This document shows positions 28,370-42,743 of a stretch of 64,000 bases of DNA, one piece after another (within the stretch, counting starts at the first letter, position 1; each line of letters starts with the position of its first letter). The notes under the pieces were generated by a model. It searched no databases. It worked only from the letters and a program-made list of their open reading frames with translations, and had not been told where the DNA came from. The stretch is taken from assembly GCA_963662795.1 (NCBI GenBank), contig OY759746.1:1728001-1792000 (forward strand), read 5' to 3'. The stretch is from Spirochaetia bacterium (GTDB taxonomy: Bacteria; Spirochaetota; Spirochaetia; CADAEX01). The position numbers were made by a program, and so were the translations under genes.

Positions 28370-29629
28370 TTACACTAACCCCTCTGTTTCAAGTTTGATC
28401 CCGATATTGCCTGCAGCATTTTCAAATACGGATTTTTTAACTGTCTGTTTTATCATCTCGCCGGGAGTGAGATTTTTATGCCGGAACCTGGCAAGTTCCT
28501 TTTCCGAATCGCGTATAACTATCCAGGAGTCAGGATATACCTTGTCAACACGCATGAATAAATCAAGTTTTTCCAGCATGGCCGAGTATCTCAGCCTGTG
28601 AGGCACACAGTATGTCAGTCCGCCAGATACTGATGTATACATATACTCAGACTCGGTTTTTATCTCTCCCTTTACAAAACGGGCGGCATTGGCGCCGGCC
28701 CTCATGCTTTCCTCTGTAACAAAGTCAACCAGGTCGTGGACATGAACAACATTTCCGCACGCGAAAATTCCGGGGACCGATGTCTCCATGCTCTCGTTTA
28801 CTACCGGCCCGCCTGTTTTCCTGTCTATTTCTATACCCGCAAGGCGGGAGAGTTCGTTTTCCGGGATAAGCCCTACAGAAAGGAGAACAGTGTCGCATTC
28901 ATATTCTTTTTCAGTTCCCTTTATTACCTCTTTTTTAGCGTCAGTTTCCGCGATTACTACGCTTTCAACCCGCTCTTTGCCCTTTATTTCTATTATGTTG
29001 TGGTTTAAGAGCAGAGGAATATTGTAATGGTCGAGGCACTGGACAACATTGCGGGTGAGCCCTTTCGCGAATGAACTCCGTGCTATTACCGCGATAACCT
29101 CTCCCCCCTCAAGTACTATGCGCCTGGCCATAATCATCCCGATATCTCCTGACCCGAGGATTATTACCTTTTTCCCGACCATATAGCCTTCGATGTTGAT
29201 GTATCTCTGTGCTGTTCCCGCGGTAAAGATGCCGGCCGGCCTGTCTCCCGGAATAGCGATTGCTCCCCTTGTCCTTTCCCTGCACCCCATCGCAAGCACA
29301 ATTGCCCCGGCGCTTATGTTTACTATGCCGCTGCTGTTCATCGCCTTTATTTTTCTGTCTTTTGATATTGAAGTCACTATTGTGTCAAGCATTATATCGA
29401 TGTTGTCTTCATTAGCCATGTCTATGTAGCGCTGCGCGTACTCGGGGCCGGTAAGTTCTTCCTTGAATATATGAAGACCGAAGCCGTTGTGAATACACTG
29501 CTGGAGTATTCCTCCCGGTTCGACATCCCTCTCTATGATAAGTACCCTGGAAAGGCCGTTCTTTTTCGCCTCTATCGCGGCGCCGAGCCCTGCAGGCCCT
29601 CCGCCTATAACTACCGCATCGTAATCCAT
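28370..29629 (-). CDS. FAD/NAD(P)-dependent oxidoreductase, partner subunit of G3P dehydrogenase
   Basis: IGGGPAG, GGILQQCIHNGFG, ELTGPEYA, MGCRER and GNVVHVHDLVD motifs. Start set at MDYDAVV. Confidence 0.88.
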   Translation of the reverse strand: MDYDAVVIGGGPAGLGAAIEAKKNGLSRVLIIERDVEPGGILQQCIHNGFGLHIFKEELTGPEYAQRYIDMANEDNIDIMLDTIVTSISKDRKIKAMNSSGIVNISAGAIVLAMGCRERTRGAIAIPGDRPAGIFTAGTAQRYINIEGYMVGKKVIILGSGDIGMIMARRIVLEGGEVIAVIARSSFAKGLTRNVVQCLDHYNIPLLLNHNIIEIKGKERVESVVIAETDAKKEVIKGTEKEYECDTVLLSVGLIPENELSRLAGIEIDRKTGGPVVNESMETSVPGIFACGNVVHVHDLVDFVTEESMRAGANAARFVKGEIKTESEYMYTSVSGGLTYCVPHRLRYSAMLEKLDLFMRVDKVYPDSWIVIRDSEKELARFRHKNLTPGEMIKQTVKKSVFENAAGNIGIKLETEGLV

Positions 29630-29642
29630 TATGCCTCTCCTG

Positions 29643-31070
29643 TTATTTTGTTTTTCCTGTGAGGATATATGAGTGTTTTTTTTCAAGAACAACTTCCTCA
29701 AGCGGTTTTTTAAGTTCCCGTGAGATTATCTCCTGAACCCTCGGTCCGCAGAAGCCGCCCTGGCATCTTCCCATGCCGGCCCTGCACCTTCTTTTTACCC
29801 CGTCAACAGTTGTAGCTCCGGGACTGCGCCTGATCGAATCCACAATATCGCCTTCCGTGATATTCTCGCACCTGCATATAATCCTTCCGTAAAGGGGGTT
29901 TCCCCTGATTAATGCAGACTGGGCGCTTTCACTCATGTCAATGAAAAGCTTCCGTTTCACCAGCGGGTTAAAGTTTTTCTTTGCTGTAAAGGCGATGCCG
30001 GATTTTTTCATGATTTCAATCATGTAAAGCGCAACCGCGGGCGCCGCTGTAAGTCCTGGAGACTTTATTCCTGCGGCGTCAAAGAACCCGGGAGTCCCTT
30101 CCGCTTCCCTTATTATAAAATCCCCCGCGTCAGGCTCTGCCCTCATGCCCGCGAACGTTCTTATGCTGTTTCTTGTTGTAAGTTTCGGTACAAGAAGCTT
30201 TGCCCCGATTCTCGCTTTTTCAAGCAGCTCATCTGTAGTTGACAGGTCTTCCGGGTCATCAAGGTCATCGGATGACGGGCCGATCAAAAGATTTGTATGA
30301 ACTGTCGGGGTAACAAGTGTCCCTTTTCCCATCTTCGTGGGGCAGGGAAAAACCACTGAGTTTACAATATTGCCGTCGATTTTATCGAGGAGAAAGTACT
30401 GTCCCCGCCTCGGTTTGATTTTGAAAGAGGGTTTTGCCGCCATATTGTGCACTTTGTCGGCGAAAACTCCTGCGGCATTTATCACATACTTTGCCTCAAT
30501 TTTCTCACCGCCGCTTTCCAGAATATAAACTCCGCCCTCGTTTTTAATCGATTCTATATCAAAATTCAGCCTGTATTCGGCGCCGTTTTTAACAGCGCTT
30601 TCCATCATTGAAATTGTAAGGAGCATAGGGTCGATAATCCCGGCAGATTCCGCAAGCAGAGCCCCTTTCGCCTCCGGGTTCAGGGCCGGTTCCCTTTTAA
30701 GAAGTTCTTCCTGAGACAGTATGCTTAAAGCCGGTACGCCGTTATTTATCCCTCTCTGCATCAGTTTCCTGATATGGAGAAGCTGTTCATCGTCAAAGGC
30801 CACAACAAGCGAACCGTTGCGGCGGAATGGAACATCGAGTTCGGCGCAGAGTGTGTCAAACATCGCGTTTCCCTCAACATTTAATTTTGCCATCAGCGTG
30901 TTTTCTTCGGCATCATAGCCTGCATGGATTATGGCGGAATTGGCTTTTGATGTTCCGCAGGAAATATCATTTTCCCTGTCAAGGACAATAATCCTGAAAT
31001 TATATTTTGAAAGTTCTCTCGCAATTGCAGCCCCTGTTACGCCTGCGCCTATAATTGCAATATCGTACAT
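29643..31070 (-). CDS. glpA: FAD-dependent glycerol-3-phosphate dehydrogenase (GlpA-like) with C-terminal BFD-like [2Fe-2S] domain
   Basis: IIGAGVTG, GTSKANSAIIHAG, SPGLTAAPA and CRCE...R.GMGRCQGGFC motifs; lies near glpP. Confidence 0.8.
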   Translation of the reverse strand: MYDIAIIGAGVTGAAIARELSKYNFRIIVLDRENDISCGTSKANSAIIHAGYDAEENTLMAKLNVEGNAMFDTLCAELDVPFRRNGSLVVAFDDEQLLHIRKLMQRGINNGVPALSILSQEELLKREPALNPEAKGALLAESAGIIDPMLLTISMMESAVKNGAEYRLNFDIESIKNEGGVYILESGGEKIEAKYVINAAGVFADKVHNMAAKPSFKIKPRRGQYFLLDKIDGNIVNSVVFPCPTKMGKGTLVTPTVHTNLLIGPSSDDLDDPEDLSTTDELLEKARIGAKLLVPKLTTRNSIRTFAGMRAEPDAGDFIIREAEGTPGFFDAAGIKSPGLTAAPAVALYMIEIMKKSGIAFTAKKNFNPLVKRKLFIDMSESAQSALIRGNPLYGRIICRCENITEGDIVDSIRRSPGATTVDGVKRRCRAGMGRCQGGFCGPRVQEIISRELKKPLEEVVLEKKHSYILTGKTK

Positions 31071-31083
31071 TTTGAAGCCTCCT

Positions 31084-31160
31084 CAGGGCATAAAAAAACC
31101 AGATAAAAAGACACCGAACCCGTTGTCGTTTTATCTGGCTCTCTTTTATCTCCAGCCATT
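31084..31160 (-). promoter_or_regulatory. GlpP-type antitermination leader, copy 1 (upstream of glpA)
   Basis: Minus strand AATGGCTGGAGATAAAAGAGAGCC runs into stem CCAGATAAAA/TTTTATCTGG plus T7. Upstream promoter TTGACA (31214-31209)-18-TAGAAT (31190-31185). Confidence 0.75.
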
Positions 31161-31286
31161 TTTATATTCTTTATGCTTATAAATATTCTATAATAATCTG
31201 TATCTCTTTGTCAATTAATAATATACTCAAATAAACCAAAAGCGGTAAATGTTTTAACATGCATTTCCGGAAAACGGGGATTTTAC

Positions 31287-32514: not shown

Positions 32515-33081
32515 TTACATAATCCAGGTGTCATGCCTGGTGGATGATACGGAACAGGCCCCGGCGTCGAGGGCTGTCATTATATCTTCCCTGTCTGTAA
32601 TAAGGCCCCCGGCTATAACCGGCATGTGTGTGGAAGCTGCAAAAAGCTTTATGACTTTAGGCATAAGACCGGGGAGGATTTCAATTGCATCCGGTTTGCA
32701 TTCCTTTATAGCCTTGAAGCCCGAGTCGATTGAAAGTGAGTCGAGGATGAAAAAACGCTGTATAACAAATATTTTTCTTTCCTTTGCAGATTTTACAAGG
32801 CTTGTCTTGGTGGTTATTATTCCGTCTGTCTGTGTCTGATCCGCAAGATAATCAAGCGCGTAAACTGATCTTGCAAGCCCTTCCACAAGATCAAAGTGGA
32901 TAAATGCAATTTTGCCTGAATCCTTGACTTTCCCTACCAGTCTTGAAATGTTGGTGATTGTCGAGGTAAGTATGAAAATAATTTCGTTGTCGGTCCTAAG
33001 TGCATCGTCAAGGTCTTTTTCATCCTTGACCGCAGGAATTATAGGATTGCTGCGGAAAGCTGCTACAATATCTGGAATCAT
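32515..33081 (-). CDS. glpP: Glycerol-3-phosphate-responsive antiterminator
   Basis: PIIPAV, FIHFDLVEGL, GIITTK, IQRFFILDS, EILPG, IAGGLI and VSST motifs. Confidence 0.95.
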   Translation of the reverse strand: MIPDIVAAFRSNPIIPAVKDEKDLDDALRTDNEIIFILTSTITNISRLVGKVKDSGKIAFIHFDLVEGLARSVYALDYLADQTQTDGIITTKTSLVKSAKERKIFVIQRFFILDSLSIDSGFKAIKECKPDAIEILPGLMPKVIKLFAASTHMPVIAGGLITDREDIMTALDAGACSVSSTRHDTWIM

Positions 33082-33146: not shown

Positions 33147-33262
33147 TTGACATTCTTATATTTTAGGGATTATACTAATGTCAGTACAAGATGGCGGAGT
33201 AACAGAGAGCCGGGAAAATGAGGCACAAAGTGTTGTCTTGTTTTGCCGTTTTTTTTTGCCCT
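33147..33262 (+). promoter_or_regulatory. Promoter plus GlpP-type antitermination leader, copy 2 (upstream of the SBP gene)
   Basis: TTGACA (33147)-18-TATACT (33171). GATGGCGGAGTAACAGAGAGCC runs into stem CGG.AAAA.GAGGCA/TGTCTT.TTTT.CCG plus T9. Confidence 0.72.
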
Positions 33263-33401: not shown

Positions 33402-34490
33402 ATGAAAAAGTTATTATTGGTTTTTTTATGCCTTGCAGTACTTGCATCAGGCGTCTTTGCCGGCGGTAAGAAAGAAGCGGCGAAAGAAGAGAACAAGGTC
33501 CTAAGGCTCATATCCTGGACAGGATATGCTCCCGCAGACCAGATTGCGAAATTTAAAGAAGAAACAGGCATTACTGTTGAGGTTACTTTCAGCAGCAACG
33601 AAGAGATGATATCAAAGCTCAGGGCGACAAGAGGCGGCGGATTTGATCTTGCCCAGCCTTCACAGGACAGGATTTCAGCGATGGTTGAAGAATTCGGTAT
33701 ATATCAGCCTATCGATTATTCAAAGGTTAACACAGCTCAGCTTGACCCTAGCATGCTTGCAGCGACAAAAAAATATACAGAAGTTAACGGCAAATCATAT
33801 GCAGTTCCCCATGTGTTCGGAACATCAGGTCTTATTGTAAACAAGGCAAAAGCTCCTGACGTAAAAGACTACAAAGATCTTCTTGATCCCAAATATACAG
33901 GAAGAACTGCCTACAGAATGAAGAGACCGACAATCCTTGCTATGGGATTCTCACTTGGTTATGATCCCTTTGCTCTCTACAGCGACAAGGCTGCTTACCA
34001 GAAATATCTTGATGAAATAGGCGATGTTCTTATCAAGGCAAAACCGGTTGTAAGAAACTACTGGGAAAACGGAGATGCGCTTCTTGAATCAATGAGATCA
34101 GGCGAAGTATGGGCAGCAATGGGCTGGGAACAGCAGGCCTGGAAGCTTTATAAGGAAAACAAGGACATCGATTATGTTGCGCCGGCGAGCGGATCAATGG
34201 CATGGGTTGACACATTCGCAATTCCCGCAAAATCAGAAAATGTTGAAGGCGCCTACAAGTGGATCAACTTCGTACTTAAACCTGAAAATGCCGCAGCTTT
34301 CACAAATGTGGAAAATTACGGAACATCATCAAAAGACGCTGTGAAATTCCTGAATCCAGAAGCAGCTGCCAACTTCTCAAGGTGCTTTACACCGGAAGTT
34401 ATGGCAAAAATGAACTGGTATCCGACAGTTCCAGCCGGTCTTGAAGAGATGGAAGGAAAGACAATGGACAAGATCAAGGCTTCCAAGTAA
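33402..34490 (+). CDS. ABC transporter substrate-binding protein, PotD/PotF-like fold
   Basis: Signal peptide ...FAGGKKE; W.GYAP...KFKEETGI.V, SNEEMISKL, WVDTFAIP and AYKWINF motifs. Confidence 0.88.
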   Translation: MKKLLLVFLCLAVLASGVFAGGKKEAAKEENKVLRLISWTGYAPADQIAKFKEETGITVEVTFSSNEEMISKLRATRGGGFDLAQPSQDRISAMVEEFGIYQPIDYSKVNTAQLDPSMLAATKKYTEVNGKSYAVPHVFGTSGLIVNKAKAPDVKDYKDLLDPKYTGRTAYRMKRPTILAMGFSLGYDPFALYSDKAAYQKYLDEIGDVLIKAKPVVRNYWENGDALLESMRSGEVWAAMGWEQQAWKLYKENKDIDYVAPASGSMAWVDTFAIPAKSENVEGAYKWINFVLKPENAAAFTNVENYGTSSKDAVKFLNPEAAANFSRCFTPEVMAKMNWYPTVPAGLEEMEGKTMDKIKASK

Positions 34491-34515: not shown

Positions 34516-34608
34516 ATGCCGGCGGTTTCTGTATCGAAGCGGAGTTTTGGAACCGCGTTTCAGGGTTTCACCCTGAAGGGGCGAGTTTAAGATACACCCC
34601 GCCGGTAT
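34516..34608. repeat. Long nested hairpin containing a REP-like core
   Basis: ATGCCGGCGG/CCGCCGGTAT, TGTATC/GATACA and inner TTCAGGG-TTTCA-CCCTGAA. Confidence 0.5.
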
Positions 34609-34616
34609 CACTTTTT

Positions 34617-34688
34617 CGGCAAAGAGACATGAGAGCCGGAAGATAAGGTATTTGTTAAATGACCTTGTTTGCCGGTTTTTTTATGCCG
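34617..34688 (+). promoter_or_regulatory. GlpP-type antitermination leader, copy 3 (between SBP and ATPase genes)
   Basis: CGGCAAAGAGACATGAGAGCC runs into stem GCCGG.AGATAAGGT/ACCTTGTTT.CCGGT plus T-run, then ATGCC. Confidence 0.7.
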
Positions 34689-34868: not shown

Positions 34869-35975
34869 ATGCAGATTGATTTATCGGTTAAGGAACTTAC
34901 CAGGAAATTCGGCGAATTTACAGCTGTCGACAGGGTATCTTTCAATGTTGAAAGCGGCAAATTCTTTTCAATACTCGGCCCTTCCGGCTGCGGTAAAACA
35001 ACCCTGCTTAGAATGATAGCAGGTTTCTATGAACCCACCAGTGGTGCCATAGAAATCCGGGGCGATGACATGGCAGGGGTTGAGCCCAACAGGCGACCGG
35101 TTAATCTGGTTTTTCAGCACCTGGCGCTTTTTCCCATGATGGATGTCAAGGAAAATATTGCATTCGGACTCAAGAGACGGGGAGAGAAAGGGCCGGCTGT
35201 TTACAAAAAAGTTAACGACCTGCTGGAAAGAGTAGGTCTTCCGGAACAGGCTAACAAGAAAATCAGCCAGCTTTCAGGGGGGCAGAAACAGAGGGTCGCA
35301 ATAGCAAGATGCCTTATACTTGAACCTGCCGTCCTCCTTCTTGACGAGCCGCTCGGCGCGCTTGATCTCAAACTAAGGGAGCATATGAAGGTTGAGCTCA
35401 AGAAGCTGCAGGTACAGGTCGGAACAACGTTTGTGTATATCACGCATGACCAGTCTGAGGCGATGGTTATGAGCGATTATGTAGCTGTCATGAATTCAGG
35501 CCACTTTGAACAGCTTGATACACCCCAGACCCTGTACAACAATCCCCAGTCCTCCTTTGTCGCCCAGTTTGTCGGTGACAATAATCAGTTTATAGGAATA
35601 CTTCACCGTGATGAGAACGGCTCCCATTATGTAGTAACAGATGATAAGAGAAAATATCTTGTAAGGGAATGCGACTTATCCGACGGGGAAAGGGTTGAAA
35701 TGTATATAAGGCCTGAGGCGGTCATAATTAAACCTGATGCGGGAAAAGCCAATTTCAATACTGTTAAAGTTCTTGTAAAAGCGATACTTTTCGACGGAGC
35801 CAACAGCCGTCTGCTTGTTGTGCTGGATGGGAGTGATAAAGAGCTTATAGTTTCCCTGCCCCAGAACAGGCAGTTTGACTATATCAAATCGGGCGATTCC
35901 ATTGAAATCGGCTGGGACATCAAATCTGCTGTCTGTTTCAGGGAATCAGGAGTTAAAGCTTATGCTGAACTCTAA
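34869..35975 (+). CDS. ABC transporter ATP-binding protein, PotA-like
   Basis: GPSGCGKTT, LSGGQKQR, LDEPLGALD and ITHDQSEA motifs; C-terminal TOBE-like region. Confidence 0.92.
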   Translation: MQIDLSVKELTRKFGEFTAVDRVSFNVESGKFFSILGPSGCGKTTLLRMIAGFYEPTSGAIEIRGDDMAGVEPNRRPVNLVFQHLALFPMMDVKENIAFGLKRRGEKGPAVYKKVNDLLERVGLPEQANKKISQLSGGQKQRVAIARCLILEPAVLLLDEPLGALDLKLREHMKVELKKLQVQVGTTFVYITHDQSEAMVMSDYVAVMNSGHFEQLDTPQTLYNNPQSSFVAQFVGDNNQFIGILHRDENGSHYVVTDDKRKYLVRECDLSDGERVEMYIRPEAVIIKPDAGKANFNTVKVLVKAILFDGANSRLLVVLDGSDKELIVSLPQNRQFDYIKSGDSIEIGWDIKSAVCFRESGVKAYAEL

Positions 35976-36819
35976 ACATAATAAAATCAGATGGGGTTTC
36001 TGGATTTTCTTTATACCGGTTTTTCTCTGGCTCTTTCTCCTCATTATCCTTCCCCATATCGAGCTTTTAAGGATGTCTTTTTTTGAAAGAAAATCCGGGT
36101 TTACCATTGCAAACTATGCAGCCTTTTTTACAGAGCCTATCTACTGGCTTACGTTTGTAAGAACAGCCTTGTATTCGATAATAGTAACATTTATTGTTCT
36201 TGTTGTGGCGCTGCCTGTTTCTTTCTATGTTACAAAGGTTTCAGGATTCAAGGTGCAGGGTTTTCTTATGGTGCTCCTCCTCCTGCCGTTCTGGGTAAGC
36301 GAACTGATCAGGGTTTACGGCTGGATGATACTGCTCCGGGAAAGCGGGGTAATCAACAAGATTCTTGTGGGAATGGGTTTTTGGGACCAGCCTGTCGAGA
36401 TGCTCTACAATGATGCTGTTATGATAATGGGGCTTGTATATACCTCAATACTTTTTATGGTTATCCCAATAATAGGCGTTATGGAAAGCCTTGATGATTC
36501 CTATATAGAAGCAGCCTATGATCTCGGCGCCAAAAAGATGGTAATCTGGCAGAAGATCATTATCCCTCACTGCATGCCGGGTATAATGTCGGGATCAATT
36601 GTTGTTTTCATGCTTGTTCTTGGAAGTTATCTGACTCCAAACCTTATGGGAGGCAAGAATTCCCTCTGGTTTACCCAGCAGATATATAATCAGTTTATAA
36701 CATATTTCAACTGGAATCAGGGCGCCGCTTTCGGCTTTCTCCTTCTCCTGATGTCTTCGGGAATTATATGGGTAGCTCTCCGGCTTACGGGGCAGCAGCT
36801 TAGCGAGGTGGTAAAATGA
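35962..36819 (+). CDS. ABC transporter permease, PotB-like
   Basis: LLPFWVSELIRVYGW and EAAYDLGA (EAA loop). Start at ATG 35962 after AGGAG. Confidence 0.9.
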   Translation: MLNSKHNKIRWGFWIFFIPVFLWLFLLIILPHIELLRMSFFERKSGFTIANYAAFFTEPIYWLTFVRTALYSIIVTFIVLVVALPVSFYVTKVSGFKVQGFLMVLLLLPFWVSELIRVYGWMILLRESGVINKILVGMGFWDQPVEMLYNDAVMIMGLVYTSILFMVIPIIGVMESLDDSYIEAAYDLGAKKMVIWQKIIIPHCMPGIMSGSIVVFMLVLGSYLTPNLMGGKNSLWFTQQIYNQFITYFNWNQGAAFGFLLLLMSSGIIWVALRLTGQQLSEVVK

Positions 36820-37670
36820 TAAGATCACTTCCCAGATCAACCGCATATAAAACAACCTATTCCCTGTTTATTTTCCTCTATTTTTTGTTTCTTTTCGCCC
36901 CTCTGCTTGTTACCTGTATACTTGCGTTTAACGATTCAATGTTCCCTTCCCTGCCCTGGAACGGGTTTACGCTTGACTGGTTTACAGGGGCCGGACCTGA
37001 AAAAATAGGTATTTTTAATGATAAAATAAACCTCCGCAGTATCGGAGTATCTTTCAGGGTCGCTGTTGCTGTTTCGGCACTTTCGACCGTAGTCGGCACC
37101 TGTGCCGCATTCCTGTTTGAGCAGGAGAATTTCAGATTCAAAAACCTCTTCTATTTTCTTATGCTTGCTCCCCTTGTAATACCGGGCGTTATACTGGGTA
37201 TATCTATCCTGTTGTTTTCAAATCTTGCAGGTATATTTTTTGAAGAAAAACTGGGTATGGATGTTAAATTGTTCAGCCCCGGTACATGGCTTGTTATTAT
37301 GGGGCAGTTTTCTTTTATCACGACTTTTGTCGCGCTTGTCGTCGGGGCCAGACTCAAGAAATTTGACAAAACCCTTGAAGAGGCGGCATACAACCTGGGC
37401 GCAAACAGGTTTGAGGTTATCTGGTTCATTACATTGAAATTTTTACGCCCTTCAATAATCGGAGGAGCGGCAGTAGCGTTTCTGATGTCGTTTGAAAATT
37501 TTAATACAACCCTTTTTCTTGTAGGTTCTGAAGCAACCCTGCCCATCAATCTGTATCTGCAGGTAAGGGACGGCTCAACGCCTGTAATTAACGCAATATC
37601 CTTTCTACTGATACTTTCTACTTCCATATTTGCAGTTGCCAATCTCTATTTTTCAAAGAAGGAGGAATAG
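36816..37670 (+). CDS. ABC transporter permease, PotC-like
   Basis: WNGFTLDWF, LEEAAYNLGA, SFENF and TLPI motifs. Confidence 0.9.
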   Translation: MIRSLPRSTAYKTTYSLFIFLYFLFLFAPLLVTCILAFNDSMFPSLPWNGFTLDWFTGAGPEKIGIFNDKINLRSIGVSFRVAVAVSALSTVVGTCAAFLFEQENFRFKNLFYFLMLAPLVIPGVILGISILLFSNLAGIFFEEKLGMDVKLFSPGTWLVIMGQFSFITTFVALVVGARLKKFDKTLEEAAYNLGANRFEVIWFITLKFLRPSIIGGAAVAFLMSFENFNTTLFLVGSEATLPINLYLQVRDGSTPVINAISFLLILSTSIFAVANLYFSKKEE

Positions 37671-37686
37671 AAAGGGACGGGAGATA

Positions 37687-37786
37687 TTGTTTATACTTAA
37701 GCTTGAAAATATAATAGTAAAGGCAGGATTTAAGAGAGCCGTGGTCCGTAAGGTGTTAAAATATACCGGGGATCCCGGCTTTTTTA
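37687..37786 (+). promoter_or_regulatory. Promoter plus GlpP-type antitermination leader, copy 4 (upstream of DHH and kinase genes)
   Basis: TTGTTT (37687)-17-TATAAT (37710). AAGGCAGGATTTAAGAGAGCC runs into stem AGCCG.GGTCC...GGATC.CGGCT plus T-run. Confidence 0.68.
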
Positions 37787-37900
37787 CGGAATAAGAGGAA
37801 TTGAGGACAGAAAGATAAGGCCGGATAACTGAAAACCGGTAAATCATCCGGAAAAGCTGTGCTGACCGGATCAATGGAGAAATGATAAAGGGGTGGAGCG

Positions 37901-39154
37901 ATGGATTTAAGTGACGCGATGGAAAAATATCTGAAAGACATCAGGGGCGGAATTGAAAAAATGAAAAGCTACGGATCAAAAGAGCTTATCCTTCTGCATC
38001 ATAACGATTCTGACGGACTTACATCCGGGTCGATTCTGCTTAGGGCTTTCAAGCGCGCAGGTTTCAGTGTGAGCCGGTTTTCACTTGAAAAACCGTATCC
38101 TGCCGTTCTTGAAAAACTGTTTGATGAAAACAGCGGGAAGATCGTTGTCTTTGCGGATTTTGCCGGAAAGATTGCCCCTATAATTGCAGAAATCAACAGG
38201 GGGAGAAATCTTGTTCTTCTGCTCGATCACCACAGGGCAGAGCCGTCACCTGATGAATCTGTTCTTAATCTTGACCCGGACCTTTACGGCCTGAGGGGCG
38301 ACAGGGACATATCCGCATCGGTCGTCTGCTATTATTTTGCGGTGGAACTTGATAAGGCAAACCGCGACCTTGTTCATATCGCAGCTTTCGGCGGAATCGC
38401 AGATTTCTACTATCTTGACAGGAAGGTCCACTCATACAACAGGCTCTGCTTTGAGGAAGCTGTGAAATCTGGCCTTATGAGAAGCGATAACGCCGGAGGA
38501 GAGGAGAGGTTTTATATCACTCTGGGAGAAATGGAATTGGATGTTGTTGATTTTTATCCTCTTCTTGATATCGCAGGGGGTGTAGGTTTTTATAACGGCG
38601 GGCCTGAACTTGGTATTTCCATTCTGCTTGAAGGACTTACTCTCGGTAAACTTGAAAAAATTGAAAAGCTTAAAAAAATCAAGGACTCTCTTTTCGCGCA
38701 GGAACTTGAAACCCTTAAAAAGGGTGGGCTGCACGATACCGGCAATATCCAGTGGTTCGATACAAAAGAAAAGTTCTCTCCTATGGGAGTAAAAATGATC
38801 GGAGTTTTTTGCGAAGAGATAGCGGAACTTGATTTTCTTGACCACGGGAAATATCTCGCAGGTTTTCAGATAATACCTGATACAGTTCCCGGATTCGGTA
38901 CTGTAAAGATGGGACAGACAAAGATTTCTATGAGAAGTTCATCAGAACTCTCTAAAAAAATAATTGATAAGAAAATGCCCGGAATGAGTGATTTTCTTCC
39001 TGAAGCGACAAATAATCTGGGCGGATTCGCGGATGCCTGCCACAGCATAGCAGCTGCGACTACGATCAACGCAGGACGGGAAAGCGAGCTTATGGATGAA
39101 ACACAGAAAGTTCTGGAATCAAAAATGAAGAAAAATGGAGGATTAAATGGGTAA
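37901..39154 (+). CDS. DHH family phosphoesterase
   Basis: HHNDSDG (motif I), FADF (motif II), LDHH (motif III), G.IAD; C-terminal ISMR...H..AA resembling DHHA1. Confidence 0.85.
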   Translation: MDLSDAMEKYLKDIRGGIEKMKSYGSKELILLHHNDSDGLTSGSILLRAFKRAGFSVSRFSLEKPYPAVLEKLFDENSGKIVVFADFAGKIAPIIAEINRGRNLVLLLDHHRAEPSPDESVLNLDPDLYGLRGDRDISASVVCYYFAVELDKANRDLVHIAAFGGIADFYYLDRKVHSYNRLCFEEAVKSGLMRSDNAGGEERFYITLGEMELDVVDFYPLLDIAGGVGFYNGGPELGISILLEGLTLGKLEKIEKLKKIKDSLFAQELETLKKGGLHDTGNIQWFDTKEKFSPMGVKMIGVFCEEIAELDFLDHGKYLAGFQIIPDTVPGFGTVKMGQTKISMRSSSELSKKIIDKKMPGMSDFLPEATNNLGGFADACHSIAAATTINAGRESELMDETQKVLESKMKKNGGLNG

Positions 39155-40124
39155 GGGGACTGCTTTTGGAAAATCTATTCTTATTGGCGATCAGTTTGTT
39201 TTAAACGGGGTGCCTGCAATACTATCCGCGCTGCCGTATCAGACAGAAACAATTGTTGAAAGGACGCCTGGTCTCGGCGGAAGGGGTTTTACCGTTGTTG
39301 ACAACAGGGTTGAGGTTCCGGGATACAAAAAGAAAAAAGAGGAAGCCTGCTACAGATCGTATGAGCAGATGATAAAGGTGATGGGACTTGATCTTAAAAA
39401 GAACCCGATAAAAATTACTGTCGGAGGCGACCTGCTTGCCGGGAGCGGTGTAGGGGCGAGCGCCGCGATAAGCGTTTCATTTGCCCGTGCGTGCAACAGG
39501 GAATTCAATCTGGGCCTTGATGCGATTGAGGAGAACTATATAGGCTGGGAGGGTGAGCATGCCTACCACGGTATTCCGAGCGGTGTAGACAATACAGCAT
39601 CATCCTTCGGCGGACTCATGATGTACATGATCCGGGACGGGAAAAAAATGTATGAAAGAATTGTCCCGGCCAAACCTCTTTATATTGTTCTTGCCAACAG
39701 CGGTGTCACATATAACACTGCCCTTCTTGATGAGCATGTTGAGGGGATGATTAAAAACAATCCCGAACTTTTCTACACTACAATGAGTAAAATTACATCC
39801 CAGGTGTATGAAATGAAAAAGGCGATTGAATCAGGCGATCTTGCATCAGCCGGTAAAATCATGACAGAAAACCACAGGCTGCTGATTGATATGGATTTAA
39901 GCCAGGAAAGGCTGATTGAGCTTTGCGGAAGGTCCATAGAGATGGGCGCTTACGGCGCAAAGCTTACCGGCGGCGGGAAGGGAGGCTACATGGTCGCGCT
40001 TGTGAAAGATGCGGATATGCAGAAAAAGATAGCATCGAAATTCGAGTCTGAAGGCGTTCCTGTCATAACTGCCCAGCTTGGAATCAATGCCGCGGATAAC
40101 GTTAAGTTCAGGATCCTTAAATAA
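39147..40124 (+). CDS. Mevalonate kinase-like GHMP kinase (substrate uncertain)
   Basis: GKSILIGDQF (canonical GK.IL.GEH), GSGVGASAA ATP loop, E..YHG.PSGVD catalytic Asp and KLTGGGKGG. Overlaps the DHH gene stop. Confidence 0.82.
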   Translation: MGKGTAFGKSILIGDQFVLNGVPAILSALPYQTETIVERTPGLGGRGFTVVDNRVEVPGYKKKKEEACYRSYEQMIKVMGLDLKKNPIKITVGGDLLAGSGVGASAAISVSFARACNREFNLGLDAIEENYIGWEGEHAYHGIPSGVDNTASSFGGLMMYMIRDGKKMYERIVPAKPLYIVLANSGVTYNTALLDEHVEGMIKNNPELFYTTMSKITSQVYEMKKAIESGDLASAGKIMTENHRLLIDMDLSQERLIELCGRSIEMGAYGAKLTGGGKGGYMVALVKDADMQKKIASKFESEGVPVITAQLGINAADNVKFRILK

Positions 40125-40148: not shown

Positions 40149-40196
40149 AGGGCAGCCGGAACCGGAAAATACCGGAAGACGGGCTGCCCTTTTTTT
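40149..40196 (+). terminator. Intrinsic terminator
   Basis: AGGGCAGCC...GGCTGCCCT followed by a T-run. Confidence 0.7.
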
Positions 40197-41001
40197 ATTT
40201 TCTTTTGGCAAGAATTATCTGAGAAGCCTCATAAAAACCTTCCGCGTCATTCTTTTCTGTGACATACACGGGATAGTGCTTCATGATGGGAAGAAATTTT
40301 TTGATGTTTGCGACTGCAATTGTATGTTTGAGAGCTTTAAACATAGGCTCATCATTCTGGGAGTCTCCCGCGAAAATTATTTTATCCTGAAGCGCTTCAA
40401 GCTCCTTCCCTGTAAAATCCTTAAGAAGCATCCTGAAGCATGTAAGCTTGTCATAATCTCCGTACCAGCAATTTATGTGGATACTTGATATTTTATAAAC
40501 TGCTTTCTCTTCATCAAGAATACTGCAGATTTTATCCATTTCATTTTTATTCAGCGGCGGGACATCTTCGCAGAAATCAATTGCAAGGTCGGCAATCCTG
40601 AAATCCTGATCCGACGCAATACCTGCGTTCGGCACTTCCTTCAGAACCCTCTCTTTTATTTTATTGAGTCTGTCCCTGCCCTGTCTTCTATCCTCATCGC
40701 TCTGGAGATATTTTCTTATTACTTTTCTCTGCTGCGGATCATAGGAAAAATAAAAGGCGCCGTTTTCACCTACAACCCCCGCAACCGGCCACATCCTTGC
40801 GATGTGATCGCACCATCCGGCAGGACGCCCTGTTACAGGCACTATTTTTATACCTGCATCATGAAGTTTCCAGATTGCCTCAAAGGTTGATGAGGGAAGT
40901 TTCCCCCCGGTAGTGATTGTGTCATCAATATCCGTAAAAAGGTAAAGGAGGTTTTTGCAAAGGTCCTCCGGAATTTCGTTTACATGCGTTATGGGTTTCA
41001 T
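40195..41001 (-). CDS. HAD superfamily subfamily IIB hydrolase (phosphatase)
   Basis: DIDDT motif I, VTGR motif II, K and GDSQND motif IV. Start set at MKPITH after GGAGAGG. Confidence 0.9.
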   Translation of the reverse strand: MKPITHVNEIPEDLCKNLLYLFTDIDDTITTGGKLPSSTFEAIWKLHDAGIKIVPVTGRPAGWCDHIARMWPVAGVVGENGAFYFSYDPQQRKVIRKYLQSDEDRRQGRDRLNKIKERVLKEVPNAGIASDQDFRIADLAIDFCEDVPPLNKNEMDKICSILDEEKAVYKISSIHINCWYGDYDKLTCFRMLLKDFTGKELEALQDKIIFAGDSQNDEPMFKALKHTIAVANIKKFLPIMKHYPVYVTEKNDAEGFYEASQIILAKRK

Positions 41002-41090
41002 TATCCTCTCCGTTGAGAGAATATTATTTATTGAAGGATTCATCAATAGAGGGTTTGACACGGGATATTATAATTTTGTATTGTGAATTT

Positions 41091-41789
41091 ATGATAATAG
41101 CACACAGGGGGGCAAGCGCGTATGCCCCGGACAATACAATAGCCGCGATAAACAAGGCATTTGAACTAGGAGCAGACGGCATAGAAATAGATGTTCAGAT
41201 GAGCCGTGATGGTGAACTTTTTATTTTTCATGACTGGAACCTTGAAAAAGTAACAGGTGATAAAGCCTTGATTACATCAAAAAGCTCGGCGGAAATAAAA
41301 AATATTGATGCAGGAAGCTGGTTCTCTCCGGAATTCGCCGGCGAGAAAATACCAAAGCTGGATGAGGTGCTGGATATAGTGCCTAAGGGTAAGCTGGTTA
41401 ATATTGAGATAAAGAAAACTGTTTTAGACACAAGACCGGTTGAAGAAAAGGTTGTAAGGCTGGTAAGTGATAAGGGGATGACCGGGAATGTCATTATTTC
41501 ATCTTTTAATCATAGAACCATTTCAATCGTTGAGAAGATCGACGCCGAAATAAAGACAGCCCTTATCATGGCATCACAGCTGGTAAATCCGATGAAGTAT
41601 CTAAGTAATTTCAGATGCTACAGTTTCCATCCGGTTTTATATTATGCAGATGAGCAGCTTGTAAAAGAGCTCCATGCAAATAACATTAAAATATATCCCT
41701 GGGTGGTAAACGATGCTTTTTATGCAAAAGCGCTTACCGGCGCCGGCTGCGACGGGATAATTACCAATTATCCGGATCTTAAATTTTAA
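41091..41789 (+). CDS. Cytoplasmic glycerophosphodiester phosphodiesterase (GDPD, UgpQ-like)
   Basis: IIAHRGAS..APDNT, GIEIDVQ, HD, NIEIK, ISSF and GIITNYP motifs. Confidence 0.93.
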   Translation: MIIAHRGASAYAPDNTIAAINKAFELGADGIEIDVQMSRDGELFIFHDWNLEKVTGDKALITSKSSAEIKNIDAGSWFSPEFAGEKIPKLDEVLDIVPKGKLVNIEIKKTVLDTRPVEEKVVRLVSDKGMTGNVIISSFNHRTISIVEKIDAEIKTALIMASQLVNPMKYLSNFRCYSFHPVLYYADEQLVKELHANNIKIYPWVVNDAFYAKALTGAGCDGIITNYPDLKF

Positions 41790-41822: not shown

Positions 41823-42743
41823 TTACCAATTATCCCGACCTTCGTTTCCAAGGAAAATTTTAACCTCTTCAAGTGACGGAATAGAAGTAATTCCCCCTCT
41901 CTTCTGTACAGAGAGGGCGGAAGCGGCGGCTGAAAAAACTATTGCTTTTTCAAGGCTATAGCCCTGTACAAGACACCACGCAAAGGCCCCGTGATAGATA
42001 TCGCCGGCCCCTGTTGTGTCTACCGCCTTAACCCTGAATGCATCAAGGCGGGTAACTTCTCCCTCTTTTTCAAATACCATCCCGTCCTCACCCATGGTAA
42101 TTACTATTGTATTTTTATTTAAACCTTTAAGCGCATTAAATGCCCTGTTATAGCCGGAACTTTCCTTTATGTTTTTTATACCGGAGACAGAACATGCGAA
42201 CCTCTCGGAACATACCAGATAATCAACCTTTGCGGCGAGGCACTCTGTTTCTTTTCTGAGAGAGCCTGCATCAAGAATAGTTTTTGCATCAGGAAATATT
42301 TCCATGGACTTAAGCGCTGTTTCAAGTTCATATCCGTCAAAGAGAAGGACAGACGGGTTATATTTTTTAAGCCCCTCTGCGGTCTGACCGCCTGTCTGTT
42401 CAAGGGTGTTCCTGTTTACAAGTGTTCTGCTTCCATTTTCAAGATTTACAATTATTATTGAAAGAGGCGTTTTAATCCCTTTCCTTTTTATCATACTGCT
42501 GCAGTCAACCCCTGATTCTGTAAGTTCATTTTCAATCAGCTGCCCGTAAATATCATCGCCTGTAACTCCAATGAATGAGGAGTCAAGTCCCCACTTTGAC
42601 AGAAGGCATGATGCGTTTGCAGCAGGGCCTCCTGTGCATTCGTTGAAATCCTGCGTCATGTACTTGAAGTTTTCCTCAGGGTATTTCTCAAAGTAAGCTG
42701 TGATATCATAAGAAGTGTTTCCGATGCAGAGTACCTGATCCAT
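41823..42743 (-). CDS. PfkB/ribokinase family carbohydrate kinase
   Basis: GGPAANA, G.D.YG, ITMGEDG and DTTGAGD motifs. Confidence 0.92.
   Translation of the reverse strand: MDQVLCIGNTSYDITAYFEKYPEENFKYMTQDFNECTGGPAANASCLLSKWGLDSSFIGVTGDDIYGQLIENELTESGVDCSSMIKRKGIKTPLSIIIVNLENGSRTLVNRNTLEQTGGQTAEGLKKYNPSVLLFDGYELETALKSMEIFPDAKTILDAGSLRKETECLAAKVDYLVCSERFACSVSGIKNIKESSGYNRAFNALKGLNKNTIVITMGEDGMVFEKEGEVTRLDAFRVKAVDTTGAGDIYHGAFAWCLVQGYSLEKAIVFSAAASALSVQKRGGITSIPSLEEVKIFLGNEGRDNW

Follow-up and report, generated by a model that had tools for sequence, protein, structure and literature searches.

A GDQ-type GHMP kinase and its DHH partner

The window analyzed here, a 64-kb stretch of DNA, belongs to the genome of a spirochaete (one contig, 3.93 Mb, 98% complete; in the following called the host) and contains two overlapping genes that are the subject of this work. 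The second of them (39147..40124, + strand) encodes a GHMP kinase of the GD(Q) type with an origin among the mevalonate kinases, as judged from its sequence, Pfam, NCBIfam and Protein Data Bank (PDB) matches and an AlphaFold model. The first (37901..39154, +) encodes a DHH/DHHA1-type phosphoesterase (Pfam DHH; 417 amino acids) with an archaeal RecJ/Cdc45-like fold. The start of the kinase gene and the stop of the DHH gene overlap by 8 nt (ATGGGTAA), hence both are probably translationally coupled, and a GGAGG lies 5 nt 5′ of the kinase ATG.

The kinase reading frame is uninterrupted and yields a product of 325 amino acids. Both GHMP domains score above their Pfam cut-offs (GHMP_kinases_N, PF00288, E 6.8e-12; GHMP_kinases_C, PF08544, E 7e-12), which together with an ATP loop of the PxGSGLGSSAA type (AGSGVGASAA, residues 98-107) places the protein in the GHMP kinase superfamily. 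Further motifs are GK (residues 8-9), GDQ (14-16), PSGVDNTA (144-151) and KLTGGGKGG (272-280). Lys9 and Asp148 correspond to the catalytic K18 and D155 of the Leishmania major mevalonate kinase (LmMK) and do not vary in any of the 125 GD-type sequences. A previous reading of this DNA, made from the letters alone (in the following the sequence-only reading), had called the ATP loop, the catalytic Lys and Asp and KLTGGG intact, and all of these motifs were located in the translation. The resemblance to trypanosomatid-type mevalonate kinases, which it had suggested, was recovered in two ways: LmMK (2hfs/2hfu) is the closest PDB sequence match (E 4.7e-53, ~40% identity over 295 residues) and also the top fold match (TM 0.88) of the AlphaFold model (pLDDT 93.2).

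The top NCBIfam model for the kinase is that of the mevalonate kinase family TIGR00549 (EC 2.7.1.36), with which it shares both GHMP domains, yet the 152.2 bits reached are below the curated cut-off of 163.05; a further model, NF003036, gave 129 bits versus a cut-off of 403. The reading frame is not among the matches of the genome to TIGR01311, and hence is not a glycerol kinase (GlpK) of the FGGY type. A single 2.7-kb contig carries a GD-type kinase fused to CO-dehydrogenase/acetyl-CoA-synthase domains (P0391, 575 amino acids; PF19436, PF03598), which may be an assembly or gene-calling chimera. Among the longer homologues there was no fusion of DHH protein and kinase, in itself weak evidence.

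The replacement of the conserved GEH of mevalonate kinase motif 1 by GDQ, pointed out in the sequence-only reading, is not restricted to the host. Together with its 120 best homologues (54-99% identity; the closest of 3445 homologue matches), the kinase forms a set of 121 sequences with GDQ in 118, GDS in two and GDA in one, and another 477 metagenome stretches carry GD(Q)-type proteins. When representatives at 50% identity were searched exhaustively, the GD-type family was reduced to one full-length representative and fragments. The next relatives have at most 43% identity; among the 149 listed we counted 95 with GEH, 42 without a match to the regular expression, nine GDQ fragments, two GDA and one GEQ. 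We then calculated a maximum-likelihood tree of 133 rows from 25 hand-picked GD-type representatives and 108 more distant matches of 290-345 residues. In this phylogeny, which had been proposed as a check, all 25 GD rows fell on a single branch (SH-aLRT 99) inside the GEH rows. The tree was rooted at its midpoint only, and with this root GEH rows stand on both sides, so that the GD clade appears nested among them. Alignment and tree indicate that GDQ is the mark of a clade and not a chance variant, and that the GD-type kinases have a single origin from bacterial/Leishmania-type mevalonate kinases, with a substrate that has probably since changed.

To map the substrate pocket, sequences were aligned to 2hfu by HMMER and residue roles were taken from the accessible part of a study of LmMK (PMC1851959). 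The alignment comprised 234 sequences (121 close and 113 distant ones of 285-360 residues), of which 125 are GD-type and 106 GEH-type, three rows being neither D- nor EH-type. According to that part of the source, E24 and H25 of motif 1 are strictly conserved and required for mevalonate binding, with H25 being key to it and sensitive to replacement, whereas V202, V28 and the Cα of T283 form the hydrophobic pocket for the C3-methyl group. The residues K18, D155, S152, T198 and K279 of LmMK are kept as K9, D148, S145, T191 and K272, the last being the salt-bridge partner, and Y167 is kept as Y160 (Tyr in 120 of 125 GD-type sequences). At the position of E24, Asp is found in all 125 GD-type sequences (D15 here) and Glu in all 106 of the GEH-type, and at H25 there is Gln in 119 of 125 (Q16 here) versus His in 106 of 106. 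Valine 28 is replaced by Leu in 117 of 125, whereas 99 of the 106 GEH-type sequences have Val. The V202 position (195 in the kinase) holds Asp in 63, Lys in 50 and Glu in five of the 125, versus Val, Ile or Leu throughout the GEH-type (106/106), while T283 (G276 here) is Gly in 123 of 125 versus Ala in 49, Thr in 23, Gly in 23 and Ser in ten of 106. The LmMK residue R169 aligns with Ile162, and the next position, 163, is basic in 111 of 125 GD-type sequences.

The kinase thus shares with LmMK the fold, the catalytic Lys and Asp, the ATP loop, motif 3 and the Lys279-type salt-bridge partner, while two features that characterize a mevalonate kinase are missing, Glu-His in motif 1 and a hydrophobic pocket to receive the C3-methyl group. 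This alignment indicates that the catalytic residues and the ATP loop were retained and that the mevalonate-binding His and the methyl pocket were lost. Since a Tyr and basic residues are kept at the carboxylate site, an anionic substrate would fit better than free glycerol. We therefore suggest a substrate that differs from mevalonate in being smaller or more polar near the branch point and that is probably still anionic. Asp195 was considered as a clue to a bound cation and rejected, given the mixture of Asp and Lys in this column.

The DHH protein matches the NCBIfam model RecJ_archaeal with an E-value of 1e-37 and 130 bits at a cut-off of 360, and scores below all NCBIfam cut-offs. Its AlphaFold2 model (pLDDT 92.8) resembles archaeal RecJ/Cdc45 nucleases over the full length, with the best match to P. 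furiosus RecJ (5x4h, TMq 0.79) and further ones to 7bih and MjRecJ2 (TMq range 0.73-0.79), at an identity of only 17-20%. The DHH motifs I-IV and the C-terminal GG..H, common to the archaeal RecJ/GAN/Cdc45-like nucleases, are invariant in 30 homologues (HHNDSDG, D86, DHH109-111, D168 and GGF.DA.H). Unlike archaeal RecJ, which is found with replication genes, the partner is a bacterial protein whose gene shares an operon with those of the kinase and a small-molecule importer. Its matches in the ESM Atlas are unnamed DHH clusters only, many of them archaeal.

Synteny was compared in 97 loci with a GD-type kinase, 17 from genomes and 80 from metagenomes; L032 and L033 (26-28% identity) were left out. 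A DHH gene lies within 7 kb of the kinase in 82 of the 97 loci. Where both flanks extend for at least 1.4 kb, which is the case in 51 loci, it adjoins the kinase on the same strand without exception. The DHH gene comes first in 70 loci and the kinase gene in 12. No DHH gene was seen in L101 and L103, two near-identical loci with 1.2-1.4 kb of upstream sequence. Among Spirochaetota, the DHH gene adjoins the kinase in all ten other carriers (10/10). This conservation strongly supports a functional coupling of both proteins. A complex prediction for the pair, with an alignment of its own for each protein, returned a score of 0.00 and no verdict and was not used as evidence. In the open literature, a coverage that excludes supplements and subscription journals, we found no paper on the pairing of a mevalonate-kinase-like protein with a DHH protein or on GDQ-type kinases.

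Isoprenoid routes in genomes with the GDQ kinase

Consistent with the sequence-only reading, no other mevalonate-pathway gene lies near the kinase in the window. In the whole host genome, HMG-CoA reductase (HMGR) was not found, and the best matches for HMG-CoA synthase (HMGS; 30 bits) and diphosphomevalonate decarboxylase (MVD; 20.7 bits) were below their cut-offs. A complete mevalonate pathway in need of this kinase is thus not present in the host. Dxr is clearly present (405.6 bits), from which we conclude that the host uses the methylerythritol phosphate (MEP) route. In both respects, the pairing with a DHH gene and the missing pathway, the situation is unlike that of LmMK.

We sampled 301 Spirochaetota genomes and found 11 carriers of the GD-type kinase, including the host. 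HMGR is absent from eight of the ten other carriers. The two exceptions, G145 and G245, belong to the same family as the host, are 99% complete with a size of 1.5-1.7 Mb, and possess HMGR and MVD, whereas Dxr is absent. Their mevalonate cluster contains MVD and a separate canonical GEH kinase reading GKVIISGEHAVV, and both genomes additionally keep the GDQ gene adjoining its DHH partner. In the carriers that do have the pathway it is therefore a different gene, with GEH, that occupies the mevalonate cluster. These genomes constitute a natural control with a second, canonical kinase, and hence the GDQ protein should have another job. This strongly argues that it is not the isoprenoid mevalonate kinase. 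Because of the score below the family cut-off, the missing Glu-His, the missing methyl pocket and the missing pathway, we advise against an annotation of the GDQ kinase as mevalonate kinase.

As a separate observation, the isoprenoid route varies within one family, with Dxr but no HMGR in the host and HMGR but no Dxr in G145 and G245 (loci L116-L124).

The importer operon, its leaders and its neighborhood

Upstream of the pair and on the same strand lie the genes of an ABC importer. They encode a substrate-binding protein of the PotD/PotF family (33402..34490, +; Pfam SBP_bac_8; PDB matches to PotD, PotF and Lmo0810, E 1e-33 to 5e-38), an ATPase (34869..35975, +; PotA/PhnT2/UgpC-like; Pfam ABC_tran and TOBE_2, NCBIfam) and two permeases assigned by Pfam and NCBIfam, one PotB-like (35875..36819, +) and one PotC/PotI-like (36816..37670, +). 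The listed TTG start of the first permease gene overlaps the ATPase gene by ~100 nt, so its true start is probably located further downstream.

In spirochaetes, the order binding protein, ATPase, two permeases, DHH and kinase is retained wherever the contig extends far enough, and is complete in 12 loci. In other lineages a PotD-like importer is found after, or convergent to, the kinase-DHH pair. For a comparison of the binding pocket, the host protein was aligned to PotD of E. coli (1pot), and on the basis of the residue roles in PotD the ligand-binding positions were followed through 20 orthologues from loci with the pair. The aromatic box and the equivalent of Asp257, both common to PotD and PotF, are kept (W39, Y42, W242, W/F268, D270 and Y306; box and D270 in 20/20). 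The acidic ligand residues are replaced, with E36 by Gly, D168 by Lys and E171 by Thr or Ile, and Y85 has become Asp (20/20 for positions 36 and 85). In addition, a basic patch of R172, K174 and R175 (Y-R-x-K-R-P) is invariant in 20 of 20 orthologues. From these exchanges we infer a ligand in which an amine is combined with an anionic (phosphate) group. Candidates would be the glycerophosphodiesters glycerophosphocholine and -ethanolamine, a phospho-amine or an aminophosphonate, probably a ligand class new for the PotD family.

Divergent from the operon lies glpP (32515..33081, −; PF04309, E 8.8e-64), a member of the glycerol-3-phosphate (G3P)-responsive antiterminator family; the same divergent arrangement exists in L015, L018, L020 and L022. 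The best sigma-70-like promoter match of the region, TTGACA-18-TATACT (33147..33176, +; 11/12 matches), is followed by a leader (copy 1; 33180..33262, +) in front of the binding-protein gene. It consists of GAGAGCCGG, a long hairpin of which this element, preceded by GGC..AG, is the 5′ arm, and a T-run at the end (fold −29.3 kcal/mol, z −2.75). After a regular-expression search, we built a covariance model, called R1, from five leader copies; it scores copy 1 with 68.4 bits. Copy 2 (34606..34688, +; 74.2 bits) lies between the genes for the binding protein and the ATPase, which are separated by 379 nt, and copy 3 (37709..37790, +; 68.9 bits; hairpin CCGGGGATCCCGG with T-run, and a terminator scan match at 37766-37778) directly before the DHH-kinase pair.

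Genome-wide, R1 has six matches. Besides the three in the operon, two precede other ABC importers (L114 2898-2978; L115 2770-2853), one of them UgpBAEC-like. The sixth copy (31085..31169, −; C1:1759085-1759169; 38.8 bits, E 1.3e-5) lies 15 nt upstream of a gene (29643..31070, −) for an FAD (DAO, E 1.4e-75) and BFD [2Fe-2S] (Fer2_BFD) protein that resembles G3P oxidases/dehydrogenases. Its top NCBIfam model is the type 2 glycerol-3-phosphate oxidase (345 bits, below the cut-off of 460), with GlpA second. Downstream of this gene and overlapping its end is a gene for a Pyr_redox_2 flavoprotein (28370..29701, −; PF07992, E 9.8e-36), the probable partner subunit. In L015, L018, L020, L022 and L031 the DHH gene is likewise preceded by the leader, whereas R1 gave no match in the rumen-type loci L024-L030. 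In the 64-kb window, no Rfam family reached its gathering score.

GlpP is described as an antiterminator in the accessible part of PMC9604022. In line with a GlpP regulon, a GlpP-family gene is linked to the operon, and a terminator leader stands between promoter and gene and is shared with glycerol-phosphate genes. By analogy with the Bacillus system, the leaders would be controlled by G3P-dependent antitermination through GlpP, and the element with its six copies may represent the target RNA of a spirochaetal GlpP regulon, outside the Firmicutes. The sequence-only reading, which had placed the kinase behind a GlpP-type leader, was substantially right on this point, with the binding of GlpP itself presumed from the neighboring gene. 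GlpK, part of the B. subtilis GlpP regulon, offers a possible analogy as a kinase that yields G3P under a G3P-responsive antiterminator, although the FGGY fold is unrelated. The GlpK of the host is encoded elsewhere in the genome, and the genome search gave no R1 match beside it.

The leader-preceded ABC system at L114 3038-7313 (G000:C1:559037-563312) comprises a 419-amino-acid binding protein, a fused two-domain permease of 607 amino acids and an ATPase, and is followed by genes for a lipoate-protein ligase and a lipoyl synthase.

Just after the kinase stop, a G+C-rich hairpin with a T-run was read from the sequence (40150..40196). It probably marks the end of the operon, shared with the convergent gene of a HAD-IIB (Cof-type) phosphatase (40195..41061, −; Pfam Hydrolase_3, TIGR01484); the consensus terminator scan missed this hairpin, probably owing to its long loop. 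There follow genes for a glycerophosphodiester phosphodiesterase (GDPD; 41013..41789, +; PF03009, E 4.3e-48) and for a ribokinase-like sugar kinase of the PfkB family (41823..42743, −; Pfam, NCBIfam), the latter a neighbor only in close relatives. Anaerolineales-type loci have a recurring set of their own, a divergent GT2 gene followed by DHH, kinase, HAD-IIA, an AAA-like protein, GDPD and a GH3 hydrolase, in which the HAD-IIA protein is nearest to PGP-type/2-phosphoglycolate phosphatases (PGP/G3P-phosphatase-like). In the 27 long loci with at least 6 kb on each side, we found the binding protein 11 times, GDPD ten, HAD-IIA nine, HAD-IIB seven, bacterial RecJ five and GlpP four times; at least one of binding protein, GDPD and HAD is near the pair in 23 of the 27. 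GDPD was rejected as an obligatory partner, as any GDPD occurs in only 2 of the 11 carrier genomes.

Within the Anaerolineales-type metagenome loci, three neighbors recurred: a protein of 447 amino acids that matches AAA/P-loop domains only weakly (17 loci, e.g., L064 11320-12663), a soluble GT2 of 235 amino acids related to polyprenyl-phosphate glycosyltransferases (16 loci, e.g., L084 4336-5043) and a GH3 hydrolase of 948 amino acids (nine loci, e.g., L066 9325-12171).

Possible functions of the kinase-DHH pair

The sequence-only reading had proposed a repurposed kinase that makes G3P from glycerol. One half of this stands: the protein is a mevalonate kinase descendant, and the glpP gene, the leaders shared with the G3P-oxidase-like gene and the recurrent GDPD and G3P-phosphatase-like HAD neighbors tie it to G3P metabolism. 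The other half, free glycerol as the substrate, is not established, and the search for glpK that had been suggested went against it by revealing a canonical GlpK in the host (best TIGR01311 match at C1:190965-192440, 722 bits). Including the host, nine of the 11 carriers possess GlpK (8/10 of the others). In G145 and G245, neither GlpK nor either of the two GpsA domains was found, and PlsY was not found either; both genomes have retained the operon together with a G3P-oxidase-like gene of 60% identity.

Most likely, the kinase handles a glycerol-phosphate-type compound rather than making isoprenoids. That kinase and DHH enzyme jointly convert an imported glycerophospho compound to G3P is our preferred reading, to which we assign about even chances; within it, we infer the substrate of the kinase, the order of the two enzymes and the control by GlpP. 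The pair would form a two-gene module at the end of the PotD-derived importer operon of the host spirochaete, in which the imported glycerophospho compound would be processed by the DHH enzyme and the kinase, predicted to be active. With a hydroxyl of the glycerol moiety as the target of the kinase, the product would be sn-glycerol-3-phosphate, which could serve as inducer of the operon via GlpP and as feed for the G3P oxidase/dehydrogenase. As HO-CH2-CHOH-CH2-O-P matches the chain length between hydroxyl and anion in mevalonate, free glycerol should have no steric advantage as a substrate over G3P, glycerol-1-phosphate or a glycerophosphodiester. A G3P-forming role is favored because G145 and G245 keep the operon and the G3P-oxidase-like gene without GlpK and GpsA. 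The missing GlpK, GpsA and PlsY suggest that these organisms scavenge lipids. The operon as their source of G3P for lipid synthesis was weakened as an explanation by the missing PlsY, and the retained G3P-oxidase-like gene points to a catabolic role instead.

Several points weigh against a joint conversion to G3P. The substrate of every family member is deduced from context, and the loci compared for synteny, being from related organisms, do not provide independent evidence. With the canonical GlpK coexisting in the host and in most other carriers, a plain glycerol kinase would be redundant, and GDPD is rare among the carrier genomes. Outside the close, glpP-bearing lineage no R1 leader was found, so that the link to G3P is documented for part of the family only, and position 195 with its Asp or Lys gives no consistent clue to the charge of the substrate. 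As PlsY is missing too, G145 and G245 may have lost GlpK and GpsA along with G3P-based lipid synthesis in general rather than because the operon replaced them, and both genomes, being of one genus, count as a single observation. Finally, the closest folds of the DHH partner are exonucleases for single-stranded DNA or RNA, and its substrate could be a nucleic acid.

Among the alternatives, we consider it possible but rather unlikely that the kinase acts on a non-glycerol compound, either the alcohol released as head group of the imported compound (an amino alcohol such as choline or ethanolamine) or a small hydroxy acid, with G3P only as a co-product and regulator. An amino-alcohol phosphate ester is a plausible cargo in view of the amine-type aromatic box and Asp kept in the binding protein and the basic patch added to it. 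Moreover, GlpK is already available in most carriers, GDPD, where present, already yields G3P directly, and the HAD phosphatases recurring by the pair may point to a phosphorylated intermediate other than G3P. However, there is no cytidylyltransferase or other consumer of phospho-head-groups among the recurrent neighbors, and Tyr160 and the basic position 163 at the carboxylate site are ill-suited to a cationic amino alcohol. The retention of the G3P-oxidase-like gene in G145 and G245, which have no other recognizable G3P source, also weighs against this alternative. A pair acting on nucleic acids or nucleotides appears improbable. The DHH protein would then be an exonuclease or a nanoRNase-type enzyme, the hydroxyl phosphorylated by the kinase would be a terminal or nucleoside-like one, and the glycerol-phosphate context would be incidental. 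This fits the archaeal RecJ/Cdc45 nucleases as top folds of the partner (5x4h, 7bih and MjRecJ2), its invariant DHH and DHHA1-like catalytic motifs and the bacterial RecJ gene close by in five of 27 long loci, but the identity to these nucleases and the RecJ_archaeal score are low, DNA-repair or nucleotide-salvage genes do not recur among the neighbors, and in several lineages the pair shares an operon with an ABC importer for small molecules; in the host, it is also preceded by a G3P-type leader of its own.

A genuine mevalonate kinase that, for instance, salvages external mevalonate and tolerates GDQ as a variant is very improbable. All close relatives by structure and sequence are mevalonate kinases, Lys9, Asp148 and the ATP loop are intact, and some sources label members accordingly. 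Against this stand the TIGR00549 score below the cut-off, the dismantled C3-methyl pocket and the Gln in place of a His described as replacement-sensitive in the accessible part of PMC1851959. Without HMGR, MVD and HMGS and with Dxr in use, phosphomevalonate would have no consumer in the host; of the other carriers, eight lack HMGR and two have a separate GEH kinase.

A more specific variant of the joint conversion to G3P, which we regard as a long shot, is that the pair applies the logic of nucleic-acid end processing to glycerophosphate esters, the kinase priming a free hydroxyl and the DHH enzyme releasing sn-G3P. RecJ prefers 5′-phosphate ends. Similar to a polynucleotide kinase, the GDQ kinase would transfer phosphate to the primary hydroxyl that is free in a glycerophosphodiester or in a short teichoic-acid-type oligomer. 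The RecJ-like DHH protein would act as an exo-phosphodiesterase at the phosphorylated end and release sn-glycerol-3-phosphate, while a HAD phosphatase would clear the leftover phospho-head-group. GlpQ is stereospecific according to the accessible part of PMC7086022. If true, such a route could use sn-1-linked esters of the lipoteichoic-acid or phosphatidylglycerol head-group type that GlpQ/GDPD leaves uncleaved.

The GD(Q) proteins, which occur in Spirochaetota, Anaerolineales-type and Atribacteria-type organisms, appear from their sequences to be a new specificity subfamily of GHMP kinases within a new two-gene module. Where named at all, they are called “mevalonate kinase” or “hypothetical”, and taken at face value the former name would misplace a step of the mevalonate pathway in organisms with the MEP route. 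The family is thus widespread and consistently mis-named, and it provides a testable hypothesis on the scavenging of glycerophosphates in anaerobes. If our preferred reading is true, a mevalonate-kinase scaffold has acquired a new substrate and become tied to a bacterial RecJ/Cdc45-like phosphoesterase. The pair may then represent an unrecognised route to G3P from scavenged phospho-compounds in anaerobic fermenters, including rumen spirochaetes with reduced genomes that lack GlpK and GpsA.

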